A stretch of DNA of 36,057 bases from a virus (IMGVR_UViG_3300022930_000022:1-36057), one strand, 5' to 3'. Shown: positions 4,358 to 33,147, counted from the first letter of the stretch. Notes: a model not told the origin generated them from the sequence alone. Made by a program: numbers and translations.

Positions 4358-4534
4358 ATGAGTAAACCAATTATATCAGAAAAGAAACAGCAACGACTTG
4401 ATAAGTACGCTGATTTGAAAGAAACCTTTAAAGGGTACTTAAAACAAGGCGGTCAAAGAACTGCAATTATTAAACATATGGCTAAACAATTACAAGTAAG
4501 TTCTGCCACTATATATAAAGCACTTAAGAAATGA
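4358..4534 (+). CDS. Small basic helix-turn-helix DNA-binding protein (58 aa)
   Basis: Read manually; C-terminal IIKHMAKQLQVSSATIYKALKK fits the HTH pattern. Confidence 0.7.
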   Translation: MSKPIISEKKQQRLDKYADLKETFKGYLKQGGQRTAIIKHMAKQLQVSSATIYKALKK

Positions 4535-7889: not shown

Positions 7890-7907
7890 TGTAACATATC
7901 GGATACA
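7890..7907. promoter_or_regulatory. Dyad operator-like site TGTAACA-TATC-GGATACA
   Basis: Copy of the recurrent TGTAACA-N4-TGTTACA motif, between the lysis unit and the RNA cluster. Confidence 0.55.
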
Positions 7908-8002: not shown

Positions 8003-8072
8003 TACACGGTAGCTCAGTTGGTAGAGCGGGCTTAACAAAGCTAGGTCGGGGATTCGAGTTCCTCCTGTGTAG
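8003..8072 (+). tRNA. tRNA-like gene with a shortened anticodon arm (isotype undetermined)
   Basis: Acceptor TACACGG/CTGTGTA, D arm GCTC-AGTTGGTA-GAGC, T arm GGGGA-TTCGAGT-TCCTC; anticodon arm GGCTTAACAAAGCT is 14 nt instead of 17; no encoded CCA. Confidence 0.8.
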
Positions 8073-8073
8073 C

Positions 8074-8350
8074 AAACATAGTACATTGACACTCTAGTGA
8101 AGTTAGTCCGGACGAGGGTTCGATTCCCTCCACCTCCACCAAAAATGCTAAGCGTAGTTACTTAGCGCCAAAGAAAAGGATTGATTGATGATCGCCTTTT
8201 CTAAACTTAATGGGGGTGCCTGGTTTTGACGGATTAATAAGTAGTTAGAGTAGAGTAAGATGTTTAATTTCAACTGGCAAAGTTGTACAAATGTTTAGTC
8301 CATCGCTTAGAGCGGTAGCATAAACAGCCCGAAGGGAGCTAAATCCCTTC
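8074..8350 (+). ncRNA. ssrA: Circularly permuted (two-piece) tmRNA: acceptor piece about 8074-8141, intervening segment 8142-8211, coding piece from 8212
   Basis: 3'-end motif GGACGAGGGTTCGATTCCCTCCACCTCCACCA comes before the 5'-end motif GGGGGTGCCTGGTTTTGAC; acceptor stem has G3:U70; helix-2 pairs GGATTAA/TTAGTCC and TTAGAGT/ACTCTAG; tag ORF present. Outer ends are approximate. Confidence 0.9.
8276..8323 (+). other. tmRNA tag reading frame (A)GKVVQMFSPSLRAVA*
   Basis: Resume context TCAACT|GGC followed by 15 codons and TAA; small nonpolar C-terminus. Confidence 0.75.
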
Positions 8351-16191: not shown

Positions 16192-16259
16192 CAAATATAA
16201 TACATAACAAGGATGTTACACAATAAATTAGAATTATTGTATTGTTAGGGTTAGATTTG
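16192..16259. promoter_or_regulatory. Divergent promoters (leftward TATATTTG 16199-16192; rightward TAGATTTG 16252-16259) with a dyad at 16203-16220
   Basis: Two exact TANNTTTG boxes and CATAACA-AGGA-TGTTACA. Confidence 0.7.
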
Positions 16260-17721: not shown

Positions 17722-19740
17722 TCACCTATTAACCCTCTCCCATCTTTCCAAATCAGTATCGGCAGTGAGCAGAAGTTTAAATTCCTGTTCGCTGTTTCTT
17801 GCTATATCAACTTCGCAGTTTAAAACATACCCACGAGCAACCCACCCGTTATAAGCAAACTTAACGTATCCAAAAGGCGAACTATCAAATAAACGACGAG
17901 CATCGAACTGTAATTTTGCACCAATCGTAGCGATATGTGGAATAAAGTACTTAGCTGGTAAAGACCCGACTAAAACATCCTCATCCTCTTTAACTACTAA
18001 TCCCGCCTTAGTCGTACTCAGTTCCGTATTTTTATCCCCTGATGCAAAGTTGATATAACGATCATCCATTCGATCAAATACAGAATGCAAAAACGCACCC
18101 TTACGCAATAGGTTTTGTTTAGGTGTCAGCCCTAAATTATATGCGCTATCAGGTGATTTAACCCCGCTTACATTCTCATAAGAACTTCCTAATATTGGCC
18201 TGTAATACTCACCATCGAAATAGCAATCAACTATAAACGTATCATTGTCTGAACCAGTATCGTAAGTTCCCTTAGCTGTCTTCTTGACATTGTACTCAGT
18301 CCTAATCTTCTCGATACCATATTGATCCGCTCTATATGGAGATACCCAATCTTTAACGGTCTGAACACGTGTTATTGGTGTTTGCCAAATCTGTCCAGAA
18401 TTGTATTCTTGTTTACCATCTATATCGTCCGTGTTTCCGTCTTTATACCCGATCTTAAACCCAGACATCATGTAAGTTTCTGCGGGTTCTATTTCGCATT
18501 TACTCACTTCGCCAACATCGAGTATTTCCAGTGGCCTAGTAAAGTAGTTGCCGTTTTCAATCCGCAATACCCCGTTTTCAAGTCCAGCTCCAGCATCGTC
18601 TATGCCATTAAAGCATTGGAACAACTCTTTGAATGTGGTCTTTATTTTAGCCCCGTCAATCTCCCTTATCGCATCCCCTGATGTGAATATTAGATTAGCC
18701 CATCTGCCTGACCTCATTAAATAGCTATCTGCCAATTCCGAGCTAATACCCATTTTAACAGCTAAACGTTTTAACAGGTCAATTCCTTTTAGTCCTTTAC
18801 ATGGTGACGGGTCTGATACAGCTATGTAGTTAACCGTAAATTCGCCAGTTCCTAACTGTATTTGCTGAGCATTACCGATTCCGTTGACCCTCAGGTAGAA
18901 AAATAGCCGTTGCCCATTACTTAGCGTGAAATCATTATTGAAAGTAAATTCAAACGGCACAACAAGCGATGTGTCGCCAGACGAAAACAGGGTAGCGATA
19001 GTGTTATTTGAATTGTCCTTAACTAATATCTGAAATCCAGCGGTTGCCCCAGGAACACGAGAGAACAACCCCGACATATTTCCGCTTACATTTATATTGA
19101 CCGATCTATTAGCCTGTACAAACCAATTGTCAGAAGTGGAAAACGATCCGTCATTGACTTCTTGCCTAATTACATCCTGCACATCGATAAACCCAGATTG
19201 AAATGATGTAGTCGCTATCTCTGAGGCGGGTATATATCTTTGGTCGTTTCCAGTAAAAGGCTGGAATACCGAAGTGCTTTCTTCATTGAACTCAACCCCT
19301 GGCAGAATCATATTAACTACATCTGATCCCGTAAGCAGCAACTCGTACTTAATCGCATCCCGTGATTTTAAAGCCTCACTTGCTCCGCCCTGCATTAACG
19401 TTGTACTGAATACGACCCCGTTATCTTTAGCGCCTGAAAAGTCTATATCTCCTGAAAATGAAGTGTCGTATTGCAGTGTGGTCGGGTTTAATTTCTCTAC
19501 ATCAATCCTGACTCCTGCCTGTATGCCTTTAGAGTAGTAAGCCTGTCTTAATATCCGCGCTCCATCATAAACGAAATCCAACGGCAATCCCCATGCCCGA
19601 ATAACTCCGAAATACTCATTATCCCTTGTGTAATTTACTTTACTGTTTTTATCCCAACCTTGAGGTAGAAAGATTATCTCAGTCTTGATTGAGTTGTAAG
19701 TAAGGTAATAACGGAATTCAGGATTGCCGAGTAAGTTCAT
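17722..19740 (-). CDS. Tail-tip / baseplate hub-like protein
   Basis: 672 aa; first minus-strand gene after the tape measure; function from position. Confidence 0.7.
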   Translation of the reverse strand: MNLLGNPEFRYYLTYNSIKTEIIFLPQGWDKNSKVNYTRDNEYFGVIRAWGLPLDFVYDGARILRQAYYSKGIQAGVRIDVEKLNPTTLQYDTSFSGDIDFSGAKDNGVVFSTTLMQGGASEALKSRDAIKYELLLTGSDVVNMILPGVEFNEESTSVFQPFTGNDQRYIPASEIATTSFQSGFIDVQDVIRQEVNDGSFSTSDNWFVQANRSVNINVSGNMSGLFSRVPGATAGFQILVKDNSNNTIATLFSSGDTSLVVPFEFTFNNDFTLSNGQRLFFYLRVNGIGNAQQIQLGTGEFTVNYIAVSDPSPCKGLKGIDLLKRLAVKMGISSELADSYLMRSGRWANLIFTSGDAIREIDGAKIKTTFKELFQCFNGIDDAGAGLENGVLRIENGNYFTRPLEILDVGEVSKCEIEPAETYMMSGFKIGYKDGNTDDIDGKQEYNSGQIWQTPITRVQTVKDWVSPYRADQYGIEKIRTEYNVKKTAKGTYDTGSDNDTFIVDCYFDGEYYRPILGSSYENVSGVKSPDSAYNLGLTPKQNLLRKGAFLHSVFDRMDDRYINFASGDKNTELSTTKAGLVVKEDEDVLVGSLPAKYFIPHIATIGAKLQFDARRLFDSSPFGYVKFAYNGWVARGYVLNCEVDIARNSEQEFKLLLTADTDLERWERVNR

Positions 19741-19788
19741 TGTAACGGAATTGGTACATTCAAATATAGTGAATATGGTTTATATTTG
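19741..19788. promoter_or_regulatory. Switch module 1: dyad 19741-19758, leftward -7 box 19768-19761, 12 bp, rightward -7 box 19781-19788
   Basis: TGTAACG-GAAT-TGGTACA tt CAAATATA N12 TATATTTG. Confidence 0.75.
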
Positions 19789-19810
19789 GGTTCACTTAAA
19801 AATAACGAAA

Positions 19811-20284
19811 ATGAAATTATACGATGAATTTGAACATTCCATATTTAATGATTATAATCTAACCGACTTAATGGTGTTAGAAGAATTCCCTAAAAGAAAG
19901 CCTAAAATATCAAACGATTCAAAAGTTATGTCTTTGTTGCAAGAATATTTAAAAGATTTTGGAATATATCTTTTTGGTAAAACTCTGTTTAGGAAAGAGC
20001 AGGATGATTCAGAAAGCGGCATATGGGTTAGGTATTGTAGAATAGATGTTCATAGGATTCCTATTAAAAATCTTAAAATACTATCCCTATTATATGGTTA
20101 TAAAAATGTAATTATTGATATATCTTTATTTACTTGTGACTCATATAATCATTCTTTTGACTTTAATACCAATACAGGCGTTTGTCTTTTAAAGGAAAAT
20201 GTATACGGATCGTCTAAGCCTATTAAGGATTTTCAAAACATTAACGAATTAGTAGTTTACTACAGAAACAATTACCCTATTTAG
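19811..20284 (+). CDS. AT-rich hypothetical protein (start MKLYDEF)
   Basis: ATG downstream of the promoter box; the longer ORF-track start overlaps the divergent gene. Confidence 0.75.
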   Translation: MKLYDEFEHSIFNDYNLTDLMVLEEFPKRKPKISNDSKVMSLLQEYLKDFGIYLFGKTLFRKEQDDSESGIWVRYCRIDVHRIPIKNLKILSLLYGYKNVIIDISLFTCDSYNHSFDFNTNTGVCLLKENVYGSSKPIKDFQNINELVVYYRNNYPI

Positions 20285-20285
20285 T

Positions 20286-20573
20286 ATGCAAAAAATATAT
20301 ACAATATTAGGAATGATTATTTTTTGGGTAGCTTACTCAATAATATGCGCTTATATTATAGGGTTTATTTTCATTAGATTGAAGATGCTATTCAATAAAT
20401 ACATTGGCTTAGATTCTATAAAATACTTCTTTGGTAAAAGATACAGTAGCGAGTATATAAGAGAGGTTTATAGCTATTTTACTACTAAAGGCATTAAAAC
20501 TAAAGGTAGCAGAGGAAAAATATTTACTTATATGCTAAAATATAGGCTTAGAAATATTAGATCAGTTAATTAA
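20286..20573 (+). CDS. Basic protein with an N-terminal TM segment
   Basis: Hydrophobic N-terminus; stop overlaps the tape-measure stop. Confidence 0.7.
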   Translation: MQKIYTILGMIIFWVAYSIICAYIIGFIFIRLKMLFNKYIGLDSIKYFFGKRYSSEYIREVYSYFTTKGIKTKGSRGKIFTYMLKYRLRNIRSVN

Positions 20574-23542
20574 CCAACCCCATTCCTCCGTTTATACCCC
20601 TCTAGTTTATTAGCAGATAAAGTACTGCCAAACCAACCCCTATTAGATGTAGTAGGGGTTTTCTTTTTAGCTATCTGGCCTAACAAGCGGTTCCCTTTCT
20701 GATGCTCACCAATTAACGCCTCAACTTTCCATCCATCAGAGCCGAATTCTTTACTAATCAACTCAGGTTTAGCCATCATCCTAACTAACTTATCATGCGG
20801 AATAATCCGAGTTCCAGCTTGCAAATTTTTGATATTAGGACTATCACCTCCGATATAAGGTGACCCCGATGGAGGAAGGTACAATTCCGCTCCACCTTCA
20901 TCCGTCAAAGCCAACCCCCCCCGACTTGATGACGTGCCTTTAAAGTATTTAGGAATTGGCGTTGCTAATGCGGTCGCCAATTGAACTGCCCCGATACCAC
21001 CTATCAACAATGACAGAGGAATATTAGGTAAAGCCTCAACCACCGCAGATGCTGTATCGAAAATGATCTTTCCAATTGCCACGGCTTTATCGAACCTAGC
21101 TTTACGTTGATCTACGTCACGCTGTCTAGCTTCCAGTACTCTTTTTTGAGCCTCTGATCTGGCCTCGATAATCGCTATCTTATTGGCCTTTTCTTCTTCT
21201 GTACCAACCGAACGTTCAACGTTTTCAATATCACGTTCTGTACGCTTATCCAGCATATCGGATTCTTCCTGAATCTTGTTTTTCTGATTCTCAAAACTTG
21301 CGTTAACGAGTTCGATACCGAAATTAGCTACTTCACCAGCGAGTTCTTTTAGTTTATCGTTGATCTCCTTACGCTTTTCGGCTTTCTTTTCTTCTAATGC
21401 GATTTGATAATCTGCGCTGTTCTTAGCCAACTTATCTTCTAAATCTCGCAACTTCTGTTGATCCGAAACCGATTCTAAACCAAACTGCTTTTTAATATCA
21501 ATGATATTTTTAACGGATTGAATTTCTAACGCAACCGACTGCTGAAGTGCCTGACGTTGAATTTTTTCTTTCTCATCGTTATATTCTTTCTCATTAATCA
21601 GCCCTTTAGCAAATTGCTTAGATAGATTTAATAGCGCATTCTGAGAGGCTGTTTGAGCCGCTTTACTTTCGGTATCCAACAAAGTTAAACGATTAGCTAC
21701 TTGCGTTTCACCCAACTTCTTTAACGCTTCGATATGAGCTTTACGATCTTCTTCGAGTAGCTTATACCGTGTTTTGTTGACTTCGATTTCCGTATTTACA
21801 TCATCTAATAACCGTTGTTTTTCTACTAAATTAGCTTCTTGACCTTGGATTAATTTCTTTTGAGCATCCAAACGGTTTAATTGCTCCGACAAAGATTGAA
21901 AATTAGTCAATGCCGAAATACGTTCATCAAAACTATTCTGATCGTTTTCGTATATTTCTTTCTGAACTGCTTTTAATGCTTCTACTTGCGCTCTTTGTGC
22001 GTCGATAGCGTCTGTATTTGCTTTTTTAGTTCCAGTTTCTCCTTTACCGTTAAGGCTTAACCCGTTTTTCTTAGCATATTCATCAGATACTTTCTGGAGC
22101 TCTGCAAATAATTTAAAACCTTTCGCTGCTTCATCGTTCAAATCATTTACAGCGCCAATCCTAGCATTATTGGCATTGCCTAAGAAATTGGTTATGCCGT
22201 TGGTATTACCAGAGAATAACCCCCCTAGTGCTTGGCCAGATGCTTTCAGGTAATCTATAAAGGTATTATCGCCTGATGCACGTTTTTGAGCTTCAATAGT
22301 TTTTTCTGTAGCTATTTGTAGAGCCGCATTTGCTTTAGCCCTTAATAACATTGCCTCAACAAACGCGGGTGCCTTATCATTATAAAATGCTTCCGCTTCT
22401 GCAGCTGTCTTTAATTGCCCTGCTGTTTGGCCTATTCCTTCATTGTATATACGTAATACATCAGTACCAGAAATAACACCTGCTTTGAATTCAGTTATTG
22501 CAGTACCTAATTGGTTTACATCAGATATAGCTTTCTTGTAATTACTATCATCTAATGCGGTATCGGTTACTAATTCTTTAGCTGTGCGCTTGAATATATC
22601 TAACTGTTGTATGTATTCGATTATAGGCTCTGTAGCGAATCCAATTAGTCCAGCTATACCAACTCCAGGAAGAATATTAGCGATCGTTTTAAGGCCGTTA
22701 AATGCTTTTCCTAATGCGGATGAGTAATTACCCACATTACGTTGGTTACGTCCTGTGGCGCTTTCTAATTGGCTTACTTGTTCTGTTAAGCCTGTAATGA
22801 TTCGGTTAAGTCTTTGCCCCGCTGCACTTGCTCGTTCTTGTGGGGATTGATTATCGTAAACAGCGTTTAACCTGATGAGTGCCGCCCTCCTTTGCTCCAA
22901 TGAACCCTGTACAGCGTTAGCCTCGCGCACTTGGTTGCGTAATTCTAAATTACCCCTTCTTAGATTTTGCCTTTCTTCTTCTAATAAGAATGCTGCTGAT
23001 CTTCGCCCCGTGTTAGCTCGTGTAGTTGTGTTGACATTTGCGGCTGTAGCTTGGGTATTAGCTGTTATATCATTCGTTAATTGTCCTAATGCCCTGTCTT
23101 GTTCGTTTAAAGCATCGGTGACTTCTGCTGATCCGTTGGCGGTACTGTTATAAGCGTCGATCTCCGCTTGTGAATTAGATATAACCGTACGTGTCTGGCG
23201 TTCCATTTGAACGGTACGTTGGGAATCCCTTGCTGTTTGCCTATCTGCCAAAGCCTGACGTTTAGCTGCTATCGTTTCTTCAATCTGTTGGGTCTTTAAC
23301 TTAGCCTGTTGTAACCTTTCTTCTGCGAGTTGAGTTTTAGCTATAGATTGCCTTTGAGCTTCCGCCTTTTTATCGAAATCCTTTAAACCGTTTGCTTGGG
23401 CTAAAGTGTTGTTCATTTTTTCGGCAGCTAAGATCGTATCTTCAAATGCCGAACGCAATTTATCAACACCTTCTTTAGCCTTATCTAATTGGTCAAAGGC
23501 CGATTTGGCTATAATTTCATCTATTAACTCTTGATTTGCCAT
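20570..23542 (-). CDS. Tape measure protein
   Basis: 990 aa, helical and A/Q/E/K-rich, QRNVGNY motif, hydrophobic patches, C-terminal PKYFKG..GG; follows the chaperone gene. Confidence 0.9.
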   Translation of the reverse strand: MANQELIDEIIAKSAFDQLDKAKEGVDKLRSAFEDTILAAEKMNNTLAQANGLKDFDKKAEAQRQSIAKTQLAEERLQQAKLKTQQIEETIAAKRQALADRQTARDSQRTVQMERQTRTVISNSQAEIDAYNSTANGSAEVTDALNEQDRALGQLTNDITANTQATAANVNTTTRANTGRRSAAFLLEEERQNLRRGNLELRNQVREANAVQGSLEQRRAALIRLNAVYDNQSPQERASAAGQRLNRIITGLTEQVSQLESATGRNQRNVGNYSSALGKAFNGLKTIANILPGVGIAGLIGFATEPIIEYIQQLDIFKRTAKELVTDTALDDSNYKKAISDVNQLGTAITEFKAGVISGTDVLRIYNEGIGQTAGQLKTAAEAEAFYNDKAPAFVEAMLLRAKANAALQIATEKTIEAQKRASGDNTFIDYLKASGQALGGLFSGNTNGITNFLGNANNARIGAVNDLNDEAAKGFKLFAELQKVSDEYAKKNGLSLNGKGETGTKKANTDAIDAQRAQVEALKAVQKEIYENDQNSFDERISALTNFQSLSEQLNRLDAQKKLIQGQEANLVEKQRLLDDVNTEIEVNKTRYKLLEEDRKAHIEALKKLGETQVANRLTLLDTESKAAQTASQNALLNLSKQFAKGLINEKEYNDEKEKIQRQALQQSVALEIQSVKNIIDIKKQFGLESVSDQQKLRDLEDKLAKNSADYQIALEEKKAEKRKEINDKLKELAGEVANFGIELVNASFENQKNKIQEESDMLDKRTERDIENVERSVGTEEEKANKIAIIEARSEAQKRVLEARQRDVDQRKARFDKAVAIGKIIFDTASAVVEALPNIPLSLLIGGIGAVQLATALATPIPKYFKGTSSSRGGLALTDEGGAELYLPPSGSPYIGGDSPNIKNLQAGTRIIPHDKLVRMMAKPELISKEFGSDGWKVEALIGEHQKGNRLLGQIAKKKTPTTSNRGWFGSTLSANKLEGYKRRNGVG

Positions 23543-23590
23543 TGTAACAGGATTGGTACTTTCAAATATAGGTATAAGTTGGTATATTTT
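23543..23590. promoter_or_regulatory. Switch module 2: dyad 23543-23560, leftward box 23570-23563, 12 bp, rightward TATATTTT 23583-23590
   Basis: 23543-23571 is identical to 19741-19769 at 26 of 29 positions. Confidence 0.75.
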
Positions 23591-23621
23591 ATTCGCTCAT
23601 CGGATAACGACTTCTTTGCTG

Positions 23622-23668
23622 GGTAACAGATATGTTACATAAGGATTGGAGGGGATTAGGTATATTGC
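23622..23668 (+). promoter_or_regulatory. Near-perfect dyad GGTAACA-GATA-TGTTACA, 21 bp upstream of a TATATTGC box
   Basis: Best match to the dyad consensus; the box is 3 nt before the ATG at 23672. Confidence 0.65.
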
Positions 23669-23671
23669 GGT

Positions 23672-24031
23672 ATGAAGATAAAAGCTAACATTTCAATTTT
23701 GCATAATAATGTGACTAATTGCACATTTATCGCAAATGAAATAGATGATAAAATTCAAACAGGTACTAGAGAAAATGATTCTAATATTGAATGGATGGGC
23801 GATTTGTCTATACCAATAAAGACTACGACACCTATAACCGATAAAAATTTATTAGAATTAGATTTACCTTCATATGAAAATGGTTATTATTGTATAAATG
23901 AAAACCTCACTGTTGATTGCGAAGGAACAATTAGACTAGATAATGATTATACAACTAAACGTTTGTTTATTGCTCAATGCTATTCTATGGAAGAAGTTTT
24001 AAGTTTTATTGAAATTGCTAATAAAATATAA
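23672..24031 (+). CDS. Hypothetical protein
   Basis: 119 aa ORF. Confidence 0.75.
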   Translation: MKIKANISILHNNVTNCTFIANEIDDKIQTGTRENDSNIEWMGDLSIPIKTTTPITDKNLLELDLPSYENGYYCINENLTVDCEGTIRLDNDYTTKRLFIAQCYSMEEVLSFIEIANKI

Positions 24032-24032
24032 T

Positions 24033-24233
24033 ATGGACTTTAAATGGAATAGTGTTGCTGAATCATTGCCTAAAGAACTTAAAGAAGTACTTATGCTTGA
24101 CGTTAATACAAGCAAAAAAGAAATTGGATATTATGTAGATAATATTAAAGCTTTTTTAAGTTTAAAGGAAGTAAAAGGTAATTTCTTTAATACTACCCAT
24201 TGGTTTTATATACCAGAAACTATAGATTTTTAA
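24033..24233 (+). CDS. Second DUF551-like protein
   Basis: KWNSVAESLP...V...THWFYIPE. Confidence 0.7.
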   Translation: MDFKWNSVAESLPKELKEVLMLDVNTSKKEIGYYVDNIKAFLSLKEVKGNFFNTTHWFYIPETIDF

Positions 24234-24272
24234 ATAAAAACATGAATTTTTGATTTCACTTAAATAAATATT

Positions 24273-24467
24273 ATGGAAGATTTTAAAACAAGATTAATTG
24301 AGGAAAAAGATTTACTACTCGATAAAGTCACAAAATTAGGCAAGTTCTTAGCAAGCGATAAAACAGAAACTCTATCAGAAGGAAATTTACTTTTACTGGA
24401 AGAACAATTAAATGTCATGAACAGGTATCTAAACATTTTGATTATTAGAATAGAATTGATCGGCTAA
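24273..24467 (+). CDS. crAss001_48-like helical hairpin protein
   Basis: RLIEEK..L..K..KL..FL...LL.EQL.VM..YL.IL..RI pattern. Confidence 0.75.
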   Translation: MEDFKTRLIEEKDLLLDKVTKLGKFLASDKTETLSEGNLLLLEEQLNVMNRYLNILIIRIELIG

Positions 24468-24488
24468 TTTGGTTAGATCGGATTTGAT

Positions 24489-24521
24489 AAGCCCTTAATA
24501 TTAATTTGTTAGGGGTTTTTC
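24489..24521 (+). terminator. Intrinsic terminator
   Basis: AAGCCCTTAATA/TGTTAGGGGTTT hairpin with a T run. Confidence 0.65.
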
Positions 24522-24570
24522 TTTATATTGCGTAATTGTTACAAATCACCTATATTTGACTTATATACTG

Positions 24571-25164
24571 TTACTTACTAGAATTCTCACTATTAAACAA
24601 CTCAATATCCTTCAAGAACTCTAAAACAGTTGTGGTCTTAGCGTCAATATGAAAACCATTGAACTTAGATAATTGCCGTAAAAGCTTATAAAAATCTTCC
24701 TCTTTAACTTCCCCATCACTAGACTTATTCAACTCCCCTAATTCCCGTTCAGCTTCCTGACGTTGTATTACTAACTTCTTAGCCGATGATAGGGTTAACT
24801 TCAAATCCCGTTGCATCGACTCAGGTGTGTACGAATACCTAAACCCATGCCTACGTAAAACACCGATCATTGCCTCGCTATATGAATTCTCTAATATGGA
24901 TACCGCAGATGTTATTACAAACAGCTTACCATTGATTACCGTAACTTGCTTAATAAGATTCAGTATATGATCGCTTGACTTATTGCCAGATAATTCGTTA
25001 TACTCATCGAATATCGTTTCCCAGACTTCGCTTAGTTCTACCTCAGACTTATTCCGGTGCGCTGGCTCTGAATACAAATATTCCATTTCACCACGAACTA
25101 CGATTTTAATGAAGTTGAACAGCGGCAATTCTGAACAAGACCTGTAAATTGATCTACTTTGCAT
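24571..25164 (-). CDS. Putative tail assembly chaperone
   Basis: Last minus-strand gene before the tape measure; C-terminal IDAKTTTVLEF resembles chaperone tails. Confidence 0.55.
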   Translation of the reverse strand: MQSRSIYRSCSELPLFNFIKIVVRGEMEYLYSEPAHRNKSEVELSEVWETIFDEYNELSGNKSSDHILNLIKQVTVINGKLFVITSAVSILENSYSEAMIGVLRRHGFRYSYTPESMQRDLKLTLSSAKKLVIQRQEAERELGELNKSSDGEVKEEDFYKLLRQLSKFNGFHIDAKTTTVLEFLKDIELFNSENSSK

Positions 25165-25372
25165 CTATCTTGCCATTAAGGTACTGTATTGACCTCGCTA
25201 CCCTTTGCCCGTTTGCGCTGTTACGCTCTACCTCGTTAAGCATATTGTATAACTTCCTGTATGCGCGAACTTTGTTTATCATTTCGGTTTTGGATAGGTT
25301 GTTGCGTAAAATGTAGAATGCTAATACGAAAAGACCGATTAGGGCTGCGATTAGTATGCATGCTAATATCAT
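25154..25372 (-). CDS. Small protein with an N-terminal TM segment
   Basis: Hydrophobic first 22 aa; overlaps the next gene. Confidence 0.65.
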   Translation of the reverse strand: MILACILIAALIGLFVLAFYILRNNLSKTEMINKVRAYRKLYNMLNEVERNSANGQRVARSIQYLNGKIDAK

Positions 25373-25417
25373 ATCATAATTGTTACATTCAAATATAAGG
25401 AAATAAGGTTAAGTTTG
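25370..25417. promoter_or_regulatory. Switch module 3: dyad 25370-25387, leftward box 25397-25390, 12 bp, rightward TAAGTTTG 25410-25417
   Basis: CATATCA-TAAT-TGTTACA tt CAAATATA N12 TAAGTTTG. Confidence 0.75.
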
Positions 25418-25421
25418 GGGT

Positions 25422-25697
25422 ATGGATATTAGGAAGTTAAAATCACTGGTTAGAAAAACAGAAATAGCAGAAAATAAATTTCATACTAAATGTTCTGAAA
25501 CTGCGATGGAATTGTGTAAATATATGAACTTTGAAAATGAAGAAGAAGATTTTTTTCAGATTGACTTTCAGCCATCAGATGGAATCGTTTTAACCGACCA
25601 TTTTTCCAAAGTTTATGATTTAACTGGGATATTAAAACACATAAAGGAAAATGGTAAATTTAATAGTTACGAGGAATTAGGCTATTATTCAATTTAA
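25422..25697 (+). CDS. Hypothetical protein, probably leaderless
   Basis: ATG 4 nt after the -7 box. Confidence 0.75.
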   Translation: MDIRKLKSLVRKTEIAENKFHTKCSETAMELCKYMNFENEEEDFFQIDFQPSDGIVLTDHFSKVYDLTGILKHIKENGKFNSYEELGYYSI

Positions 25698-25699
25698 AA

Positions 25700-26149
25700 T
25701 CACATAAACCCCAACCCCGTAACAAGCGTAACATATTCCTTAACTCCAGTATAGAAAACACCAAGTGCATAAACTTTTCGGTTGTCTTTTGTTAGGCCGT
25801 ATATTTTCTCGCCATAAAGTTTAACTAATCGAGCAGACTTCTGATCCTTACTTGATATACTGAAGCCCGACGAATCCACATCGACTACGAACTGGCTTTG
25901 AAAACGGCCCGTAGAAGACAAATCTGGAATACCAAATCCAGGTTGTGGATTTATTGCATTCTTTTTAGCTGCGTATGTTCGCGATTTATACTCCCGAAGT
26001 TTAATCCCATCCGAGCGCATACCGAATTGATATAACTGCGACCTGTTTAAATCGATGATAGTTCGTTTAGTATCGTTCAGGATTTCGGGAACTTGGCCTT
26101 TAAGGTTAAGGTTTTCAAACTTTCGGAACATCCCGGCTATTGTGGTCAT
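25700..26149 (-). CDS. Putative tail completion/neck protein (start MTTIAGM)
   Basis: Basic; Y...Y...K and DLSSTGRF pattern of virion morphogenesis proteins; position in the tail unit. Confidence 0.6.
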   Translation of the reverse strand: MTTIAGMFRKFENLNLKGQVPEILNDTKRTIIDLNRSQLYQFGMRSDGIKLREYKSRTYAAKKNAINPQPGFGIPDLSSTGRFQSQFVVDVDSSGFSISSKDQKSARLVKLYGEKIYGLTKDNRKVYALGVFYTGVKEYVTLVTGLGFM

Positions 26150-26156
26150 ATGCGAA

Positions 26157-26208
26157 TGTAACAATTTAGATAGGTATTAGCAAGTTAGGGGTATTGTGTT
26201 TAGATTTG
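26157..26208. promoter_or_regulatory. Degenerate switch module 4: TGTAACA-ATTT-AGATAGG, leftward TAACTTGC 26187-26180, 13 bp, rightward TAGATTTG 26201-26208
   Basis: Same order of elements with slightly shifted spacing. Confidence 0.55.
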
Positions 26209-26227
26209 AGAAACTTAAATAAAGATT

Positions 26228-27043
26228 ATGAAAAAACATGAGTTGCTGAAATATGCATACGACAATTATCCTAAAGGGACTGTTGCTAGGTTTGGAGGTA
26301 AATTGCCAGATCACGTAAGTACAGGTAAATTTGAAATTACTGATTTAAACCATAATGGAGAGATTCAAGTAATGTCTGATAATGGTTTAGAATGTTTTTA
26401 CGCAGATGGAGAATGGGCAGAAATCATTCCAGAAAAACAACCCTCAATCCTAGATGGTAAGGTAGCAATCTATTGTAAAAACTATAGAGAATATTTATTG
26501 ACAGCAAAACACCTAGACTCAATTGGTAAAAGATCGAATATTGTAAAAGAAGAATATTTTGAAAATAAACCAATATGGATAAGCGTAGAAAATCAACCTG
26601 TTTTTTGGAGTTCTATAGGAGAGATAAGGCCAGAAGATAACGGCTACAGTATCATCCCCTTCGCAGACTTCGCTAAAGAAGTAGGAATAACCGTTCCTGT
26701 ATTCATTCTGAAGTCAGAGGATGGAGTTGATTTGTATGAGGGAGATCAAGCGCATCATGTATTTCAGGGACATGGTAGTTTGGGTTATGGAGGCTTATAT
26801 AATATTAAACATTTTTTGCTTGTAGGTAAAGCATTCAGCACGAAAAAAGCAGCCGAATCGTGGATTGAGGAACAGAATAAGCCTAGAGAGATTGAGATAA
26901 TACATAATGATAATGAAACATCTCATGTCAGTAAAGATCAAATTAAAATTAGGTTTTCCGATAAAGGGTCTATAGATTATATTGGCTATTTGACTCCTAA
27001 AGCTATCGAACAAATTTGGGAAGCCTACCAATCGCTACAATAA
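26228..27043 (+). CDS. Mosaic hypothetical phage protein
   Basis: 271 aa ORF; SEDGVDLYEGD and AFSTKKAAESWI segments. Confidence 0.8.
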   Translation: MKKHELLKYAYDNYPKGTVARFGGKLPDHVSTGKFEITDLNHNGEIQVMSDNGLECFYADGEWAEIIPEKQPSILDGKVAIYCKNYREYLLTAKHLDSIGKRSNIVKEEYFENKPIWISVENQPVFWSSIGEIRPEDNGYSIIPFADFAKEVGITVPVFILKSEDGVDLYEGDQAHHVFQGHGSLGYGGLYNIKHFLLVGKAFSTKKAAESWIEEQNKPREIEIIHNDNETSHVSKDQIKIRFSDKGSIDYIGYLTPKAIEQIWEAYQSLQ

Positions 27044-27045
27044 AC

Positions 27046-27081
27046 AAAAAACCCTCGAAACTATCCAGCGACGAGGGTTTT
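27046..27081. terminator. Bidirectional intrinsic terminator
   Basis: AAAACCCTCG-N14-CGAGGGTTTT between convergent genes. Confidence 0.75.
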
Positions 27082-27102
27082 ACACTTAAACATTATAACA
27101 GA

Positions 27103-33125: not shown

Positions 33126-33147
33126 GTAAAGTAACAATATTTTTACT
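33126..33147. promoter_or_regulatory. Dyad AGTAACA-ATAT-TTTTACT overlapping a variant -7 box before the portal ATG
   Basis: One mismatch in the GTAACA-N4-TGTTAC core; lies in the 44 bp terL-portal gap. Confidence 0.55.

Follow-up and report, generated by a model that had tools for sequence, protein, structure and literature searches.

Protein p4 of phage phi29 carries out the early-to-late switch at promoters A2b and A3, acting in opposite ways on the divergent promoters and turning the late genes on, and both lambda cI at OR2 and Mu Mor are class II activators that work from about -41.5. Host proteins can also set the timing of a phage: Spo0A suppresses the lytic cycle of the Bacillus phage phi29 (PMC2731898), and in the lytic deferment of alphaproteobacterial phages, sites for one regulator, CtrA, stand in promoters of unrelated phages of one host group, for which lysis timing by host state was proposed (PMC9437464). 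Here we describe a promoter arrangement in IMGVR_UViG_3300022930_000022, the entire 36,057-bp record of a tailed phage (the window, i.e., the whole stretch of DNA analysed), in which an 18-bp dyad, TGTAAC-N6-GTTACA, recurs at promoters of accessory gene cassettes and of virion genes. From the geometry of these sites we tentatively propose, at close to even confidence, that one dimeric and probably host-encoded regulator activates the cassettes and represses the virion genes through the dyad.

Judged by analogy, such a system would work like CtrA lytic deferment and like phi29 p4 and Spo0A. Whereas phi29 has one switch per genome, the arrangement is repeated here at each cassette junction, and its predicted bound state turns virion genes off. 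As in the CtrA and Spo0A type of control, the dyad is enriched in promoters of unrelated phages of one inferred host group. In the CtrA system as presented in PMC9437464, the regulator is known, its binding has been shown and its sites occupy few regions, whereas here the sites are distributed gene by gene, the binder is putative, and the position of a site predicts opposite effects on accessory and virion genes. The likeness in position is to class II activators: the dyad centre lies at a fixed distance, approximately 41-42 bp upstream of the inferred start, with activation predicted one way and a block the other, and at a divergent promoter of E. coli, CRP placed at -40.5 stimulated transcription in one direction while blocking it in the opposite one (PMC12825309). 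The present sites differ from these examples in their Bacteroidota primary sigma factor, TAnnTTTG boxes, separate boxes 12 bp apart and site sequence; the separate boxes also rule out a bidirectional promoter with a shared -10 element as defined in the passage cited. In the open-access literature, we found no description of the motif or layout in Bacteroidota phages, nor of a mechanism timing their genes by such a motif.

Spacing of the dyad relative to promoter boxes

The initial annotation of the window had described a fixed unit of dyad, 2 bp, leftward -7 box, 12 bp and rightward -7 box. Comparison with 18 relatives, taken as whole or near-whole records, placed the conservation elsewhere, in the dyad itself and its end 21-22 bp before the TAnnTTTG box of a cassette. 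Counting dyads with up to two mismatches, and the reversed pattern as a control, gave 102 dyads versus 22 control sites in the window and nine motif-rich records (475 kb) and 24 versus 22 in nine motif-poor relatives (378 kb), an excess that is partly circular, as the grouping was chosen after the counts were known; the spacing is free of this circularity. In the motif-rich set, the downstream TAnnTTTG box followed the dyad at gaps of 21 (n = 19), 22 (5), 26 (6) and 31 bp (8), with mostly 0-2 cases at other gaps, except -4 (4 cases). Gaps 21 and 22 account for 24 of the 102 dyads and for none of the 22 control sites in the same records. No dyad of the motif-poor set lay at this distance, at which one reversed-control site occurred (in G001), and controls with 5- and 7-bp spacers showed no phasing. 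The independent events are fewer than these counts, in that some of the promoters are homologous between phages, and the counts are also raised by the apparently double records G004 (58,782 bp) and G434 (77,222 bp). Each of these two contains packaging and virion genes in duplicate sets, as if two related phages had been joined.

A second class of dyads lies over the promoter, 2 bp after the box (n = 7), 4 bp after it (3) or overlapping it (gap -4), and some dyads sit within the promoter spacer (gaps 3-18). Mirror symmetry was evident in the base matrix of 63 sites at the first, activator-type position (central A of the first half in 61/63, T of the second half in 58/63), indicating that the site is a true dyad. 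PhoB/OmpR-type direct repeats have a period of 11 bp; this type was rejected because half-site variation is mirror-symmetric instead, and a TAACA repeat in the host (see below) is a separate element. An extracytoplasmic function sigma promoter with TGTAAC as its -35 element was also dropped, since no conserved -10 element was seen by eye approximately 16-17 nt on in the site listings.

When a relaxed box was used to list 57 activator-position promoters with a downstream open reading frame (ORF), the ATG followed the box by 3-5 nt in 32 of them. These phages may favour leaderless messages; in B. thetaiotaomicron only about 3.7% of leaders are shorter than 10 nt (PMC7366714, which also quotes the -7 and -33 promoter consensus). 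If the messages are leaderless, the box spans -11 to -4 and the gap-21 dyad is therefore centered at -41.5; with starts set by this ATG spacing, we infer an activator position near -41.5. The gap-21 spacers are mostly unrelated in sequence, with their length and both half-sites kept.

Within the window, three 48-bp modules (18-bp dyad, 2 bp, CAAATATA, 12 bp, TAnnTTT(G/T)) were confirmed at 19741-19788, 23543-23590 and 25370-25417. No other perfect leftward CAAAnnTA box in the window has a rightward box within 40 bp, and in these three pairs the distance is always 12 bp. The three modules exceed chance as judged from 300 local dinucleotide shuffles of the window: three 12-bp box pairs arose in 0/300 (mean 0.07), three pairs at any one spacing in 1/300, the full module in 0/300, and three dyads with at most one mismatch in 0/300 (mean 0.11). 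The 22-bp distance from dyad to opposite box noted earlier, and that of 21 bp at 23622, were both correct. A dyad had been reported at each junction; this stands for the first two, but the third has one good half (CATATC-N6-GTTACA, three mismatches). The second module has the geometry, but 81 nt separate its rightward box, TATATTTT, from the following ATG, and it is the 23622 promoter that directly precedes the cassette. The fourth junction (26157-26208) had been misassigned: the box that gave it spacings of 5 and 13 bp is TAACTTGC, with two mismatches, and a better leftward box, TACATTCG, overlaps the dyad, the rightward box being 26 bp from it. Missed altogether were sites at 7890 (one mismatch), 16203 (two), 24526 and 33130 (three each).

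The 12-bp spacer is arithmetic (22 - 2 - 8), because divergent junctions satisfy both the 22-bp and the 2-bp constraint around an 8-bp box. The 2/12 geometry is thus present in the window, but as one layout among several (overlap at gap -4; gaps 21, 22, 26 and 31). Full modules numbered eight: the spacer was 12 bp in six and 11 bp in another, and the last (L051), listed at 6 bp, contains an additional box at 12. Most dyads at the activator position lack an opposing box. A module scan with a free spacer returned 22 loci, mostly with weak left halves, including four with a virion ATG beside the dyad and spacers of 11-12 bp. A metagenome scan fixed at gaps 21-22, run without a control, yielded no recurring gene.

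Targets of the two dyad positions and exchange of cassettes

The two positions are associated with different genes. Forty-six of the 57 activator-position targets were scanned together and those of the window separately, a few homologues and early-operon genes being left out; none of the 46 was a head, tail or connector gene by PHROG. These targets comprised unknowns, an HNH protein, methyltransferases, ParB-like proteins, PAPS reductase and recombination-operon genes. The occluded position is represented by 42 rows and 30 distinct targets, of which 15 are virion-class genes (12/18 in one PHROG scan, 3/4 in the window), namely portal, protease, head morphogenesis, adaptor, tail completion, tail tube, tape measure and virion protein genes; seven others are unlabelled or of other kinds. 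Where a perfect TATATTTG stands at gap 2 (ten rows), the site always falls within the virion module (five by PHROG label and five by synteny). The G571 prophage, which has an integrase and a CI-like repressor, carries seven dyads, six of them with the core GTAACATATATGTTAC; six stand before terS, portal, protease, head-tail and tail tube genes and one before a glycosyltransferase gene, and one shows the gap-2 TATATTTG layout of the window.

The module is kept while the cassettes change. The first module is gap-free in contigs of runs X2, X3 and X4, with a different gene downstream: in X2 the cassette at 19811-20573 is replaced by 359 other letters, and the first genes differ in X3 and X4. In addition, the gene at 25422-25697 is skipped in a contig of X4, the cassette at 26228-27043 is absent from X2 (joint 26151-27047), and other cassettes of related strains were replaced, moved or lost, as read from DNA contigs only. 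Conservation of the 2/12 spacing in relatives with different cassette genes, suggested earlier as a check, was partial: the module is retained during swaps, but the spacing is not universal. Positions 19781-19810 are identical to a gap-21 promoter region in G010, and the 23622 promoter matches a gap-21 promoter of G430, an unrelated phage, at 95% identity over 64 bp. DNA homologous to the 24526 site lies before the portal gene in G430 (83% over 88 bp), and this site is likely a hitch-hiked remnant.

Under the proposed mechanism, a dimer would bind the dyad and, at cassette promoters, recruit primary-sigma polymerase from -41.5, with start sites predicted about 4 nt after the box. Where the dyad covers the box or start, binding would block the virion promoter sterically, and at divergent junctions a single site would do both. 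Virion genes would come on once the protein leaves, through either a change in host signal or titration by multiplying phage genomes. The earlier suggestion that one dimer favours the cassette while covering the virion start fits the phasing, target sorting and module retention, although the 2/12 spacing is not fixed. The companion argument, that overlapping polymerase footprints alone make firing mutually exclusive, does not hold for E. coli bidirectional promoters, where basal activity was too low for competition at 5/5 promoters tested and exclusion occurred upon activation (PMC12825309).

Candidate binding proteins and alternative readings

Leaf-litter metagenomes contain window DNA, with no RNA data set listed among them, the major tail protein has a homologue at 51% named from Pedobacter lusitanus, and related prophages sit in G570 and G571, both of the same genus as G268. 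Based on the prophages and the tail-protein homologue, the host group is probably this genus, probably Pedobacter. A shared host is suggested by cassette DNA and a pair of lysis-region membrane genes that recur in carriers whose virion genes are very different. Cultured phages include no close relative (best capsid match 30-33%), and INPHARED gave no match for cassette DNA or for the A3 protein family introduced below.

Dyads also precede host genes. In the G268 genus, TG(C/T)AAC-N6-GTTAC stands 9-10 nt before a conserved TAAAC element at an LTXXQ (Spy/CpxP-like) gene in 27/30 loci. A dyad-21-TATTTTTG variant occurs in eight rows of the host-genus listing, and the two that were read both precede an efflux adaptor-type (RND-efflux-type) gene; another RND-efflux-type operon in G268 has a gap-31 dyad. 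Conserved host sites without a genome-wide excess would fit a small host regulon. A wider reading is that several phages of a single soil Bacteroidota genus, lytic and temperate and unrelated to one another, are wired gene by gene to an undescribed host regulator, keeping exchangeable cassettes on and head and tail genes off for as long as it is bound, with virion building gated by host state or titration and no late-gene activator of their own. We would sooner doubt this reading than accept it; given the sites before Spy-like and efflux genes, the regulator would possibly be one of envelope stress.

Boxes for TyrR and P2 Ogr are likewise 18 bp long and of the TGT-N12-ACA type. The GacA upstream activating sequence, TGTAAG-N6-CTTACA (PMC4353343), shares the length, outer bases and 6-bp spacer of the dyad but has G instead of C as its sixth base and comes from another phylum. 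We found nothing to link the dyad to a protein of the GacA, TyrR or Ogr type. Palindromic operators of a host regulator are also described within Bacteroidota, and they agree with the dyad in neither sequence nor spacing.

Several observations weigh against the proposed mechanism, beginning with the circularity, shared ancestry and double records that affect the dyad counts. In the host genus, dyad, 21 bp and box together showed no excess (43 versus 40 control sites in four genomes), and each of 151 genomes had at most three sites, of which the commonest was a same-orientation repeat; the dyad was near background in 401 Bacteroidota and was not present upstream of 27 genes (15 LuxR-type, 12 OmpR-type) in G268. 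Perfect dyads across all IMG/VR (gaps 12-36) amounted to 56 distinct sites with no peak at 21/22, and the pattern is therefore clade-limited. Among the activator-position targets there is one homologue of a small head-module gene, 11 of the 42 occluded rows lack an ORF, and eight occluded targets are accessory genes behind weak or distant boxes, not PHROG-scanned as such. Three further points sit poorly with the proposal: dyads at gap 26 face the other side of the helix from those at gaps 21 and 31, the close relatives G001, G002, G008 and the G570 prophage largely do without the system, and the near-identical spacers of the G571 prophage resemble a phage-specific operator.

Other results of the host scans concern neighbouring motifs. 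The bare dyad numbered 102 versus 88 in three host-genus genomes. In the three Bacteroidota genomes richest in dyads, 1/37 sites was at gap 21, and the excess in G176 was a repeat protein; a four-genome 'conserved site' in the Bacteroidota scan proved to be coding sequence. At approximately 3018-3064 of L369, a same-orientation TAACA repeat, highly conserved in the host genus, is followed after 21 bp by the TAnnTTTG box of a phosphoesterase-glycosyltransferase operon; we take this repeat to resemble a Pho-type box. In G021 (L364 2975-3059), an HTH_3/S24 repressor gene is divergent from dinB-dnaE2 across a GTTACA/TGTAAC-rich intergenic region in which two published Bacteroidetes SOS boxes were not visible at a glance, and which possibly holds a third motif. 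A link to the SOS response through this locus was rejected, as the dyad does not match the published boxes (GGA-N5-TCC or CTAA-N5-TTAG). The motif-poor G002, with an integrase and no dyad, has a repeated GCATAATTAG-type motif (L057 2596-2711, 5002-5276 and 11110-11224) just before the TATATTTG boxes of packaging and tail genes, which suggests a parallel solution with a different operator.

The alternative that survives best, although we consider it unlikely, keeps activation of cassettes and repression of virion genes but has the phage encode the binder, with A3 as the best candidate, perhaps replaced by other small regulators in some lineages. A3 is a family of 54-59 aa with an alpha-beta-alpha-beta-beta order, encoded in the early operon of five motif-rich records (G003, G004, G005, G006 and G009); in G003 and G009, tandem TGTAAC and a gap-31 dyad occur in the promoter of the A3 gene itself. 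The near-identical G571 operators and the lack of a broad host regulon also favour a phage protein, and in the window phage A3 would lie in DNA missing from the record, which is incomplete because an identical large terminase also occurs on a 40,585-bp contig (leaving approximately 4.5 kb absent) and because helicase and primase-like genes present in relatives are lacking. Nevertheless, A3 was not found in the motif-rich G010, G430, G434, G435 or the G571 prophage and is present in the motif-poor G008 and G570 prophage. The other small families are patchy as well, HTH58, Xis-like, RHH and GcrA-like proteins differ in predicted recognition elements, and a repressor made only after entry would be slower to act than the consensus virion promoters. 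A3 and these four families, together with CI-like proteins, were rejected as a universal binder; four candidate families were each missing from several carriers. No regulator gene common to all carriers emerged among the families searched, a search that very divergent homologues and the missing DNA of the window could escape.

The 58 representatives of A3 include homologues that are tandem duplications or fused to other domains. Its structure was predicted with confidence (predicted local distance difference test score, pLDDT, 92), and the fold is widespread in phage proteins; for L088:13430-13594 and homologues there was no Pfam match for the scanned member and no convincing PHROG match, and a fold search in the PDB gave nothing at E <= 0.001, only non-significant winged-helix matches. 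Separately, positions 4358-4534 (+) of the window encode a 58-aa helix-turn-helix (HTH) protein in a divergent early cassette, with homologues in G001, G005, G430 and G434; it is a possible early regulator, but not one present in all carriers. An ORF cut by the record edge (1-72, -) just after the exonuclease gene may, by eye only, belong to an HTH family found at the same place in G006, G010, G434 and G435. Immunity-repressor operators of temperate phages were rejected, as the carriers searched lack the combination of integrase and CI-type repressor, with the G571 prophage as the exception; a PF00589 tyrosine integrase was found in 1/17 records, G002 (the G006 contig and serine integrases were outside the search).

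It is distinctly improbable that the protein only represses, with one operator shutting both promoters, at the start site on one side and at the -33 region on the other, so that every scattered promoter of host type stays silent until it is removed. Gap 21 does put the dyad edge at the -33 position quoted in PMC7366714, the G571 prophage sites are occluding in 7/7 cases, and some dyads lie inside the spacer, but pure repression has no need of a sharp peak at 21/22 (24 sites versus 0-2 at most neighbouring gaps), nor would one common function account for the sorting of accessory and virion genes by position.

We assign a very small probability to ordinary back-to-back promoters and one promoter block copied by recombination, with spacing that reflects descent and no bound protein. 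Back-to-back -7 boxes are indeed common in Bacteroidota chromosomes (27 versus 8 control in five genomes, with 8/27 at 11-14 bp), and some promoters are near-identical between phages. The unrelated gap-21 spacers of constant length with intact half-sites nevertheless argue against this, as do the mirror-symmetric mismatches, the several independent layouts that reach the same two positions and the dyads of host genes.

Hardly credible is a reversed polarity, in which the protein is late and activated, co-oriented cassette promoters drive read-through into virion genes: cassettes are co-oriented with the virion operon in G006 and G010, where no dyad over the virion start was found, but they face away from the virion genes in the window phage, G004, G430 and G434, where the dyad covers virion-gene boxes or leaders, and the activator-position targets include methyltransferase, ParB-like and recombination-operon genes. 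A recombination-site reading was rejected, as the spacers differ between sites and no tyrosine recombinase was found in the motif-rich free phages searched.

Other features of the window and biological meaning

The terminase, portal, protease, capsid, tail and tape-measure genes of the window all lie on the minus strand, interrupted by plus-strand, AT-rich cassettes of small genes (Table 1). The 672-aa virion protein matches its PHROG family at E 9e-54 and the tape measure protein at E 9e-10; the former gave no usable loci in IMG/VR, and neither gene of the first cassette has a PHROG match. The hairpin at 27046-27083 is likely a two-way terminator, in which case the downstream tail genes would need their own promoter. 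A permuted (two-piece) transfer-messenger RNA (tmRNA) gene lies at 8081-8323 (+; Rfam RF04321, 64.2 bits versus a cut-off of 47); ARAGORN also calls it a tmRNA, with different bounds and tag, and homologous DNA occurs in G009 and L001. A two-piece tmRNA has already been reported in a marine phage (PMC9004378). The tRNA-like gene at 8003-8072 (+) scores 43 bits with Rfam, has a short anticodon loop and received no ARAGORN tRNA call.

Table 1. Dyads, -7 boxes and associated genes in the window (empty strand cells, no strand given).
Feature	Position	Strand	Remark
Dyad, 1 mismatch, upstream of tRNA/tmRNA cassette	7890..7907		no consensus box at 21-31 bp
Fifth junction: leftward box 16192-16199, 3 bp, dyad 16203-16220 (2 mismatches), 31 bp, rightward box 16252-16259	16192..16259		
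Virion structural protein gene, predicted repressed target	17722..19740	-	phrog_15220
Dyad TGTAAC-N6-GGTACA, 1 mismatch	19741..19758		fills predicted 5' leader of virion gene; cassette box 22 bp on
Leftward -7 box TATATTTG of 672-aa virion protein gene, ATG 19740	19761..19768	-	predicted start site
Rightward -7 box TATATTTG of cassette 19811-20573	19781..19788	+	
Two-gene exchangeable accessory cassette	19811..20573	+	
Tape measure protein gene, predicted repressed target	20570..23542	-	phrog_18891
Dyad TGTAAC-N6-GGTACT, 2 mismatches, over tape-measure gene leader	23543..23560		
Leftward -7 box TATATTTG of tape measure gene, ATG 23542	23563..23570	-	
Rightward -7-like box TATATTTT, gap 22	23583..23590	+	cassette ATG 81 nt on
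Second promoter: dyad 23622-23639 (1 mismatch), 21 bp, box TATATTGC	23622..23668	+	predicted leaderless, ATG 3 nt later
Accessory cassette, three genes (DUF551, crAss001_48-like)	23672..24467	+	
Half dyad, 7 bp, TATATTTG	24526..24558	+	points antisense into gene 24571-25164
Half-good dyad CATATC-N6-GTTACA, 3 mismatches	25370..25387		overlaps ATG of gene 25154-25372
Leftward -7 box TATATTTG for two genes preceding tape measure gene	25390..25397	-	tail-module role by synteny
Rightward box TAAGTTTG, gap 22, cassette gene 25422-25697	25410..25417	+	ATG 4 nt later, predicted leaderless
Leftward box TACATTCG overlapping dyad (gap -4), 3 nt before tail gene ATG 26149	26153..26160	-	phrog_6195 tail protein
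Half-good dyad TGTAAC-N6-GATAGG, 3 mismatches	26157..26174		
Rightward box TAGATTTG, gap 26, for cassette gene 26228-27043	26201..26208	+	
Hairpin flanked on both sides by A and T runs	27046..27083		read from sequence
Weak, uncertain dyad, 3 mismatches	33130..33147		just upstream of portal ATG (33121)

The timing of genes in Bacteroidota phages is poorly described. Virion genes that stand behind near-consensus host promoters should be transcribed immediately unless something restrains them, and the dyad offers a testable hold, with a layout that yields exact predictions of site, spacing and target class. It may also provide a portable activator-type promoter of approximately 50 bp for a phylum short of genetic parts, and it points to a host regulon that may be new. 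Should the binder prove to be of host origin, host-state sensing of the CtrA and Spo0A type would extend to a third phylum, in a distributed rather than a single-switch form.

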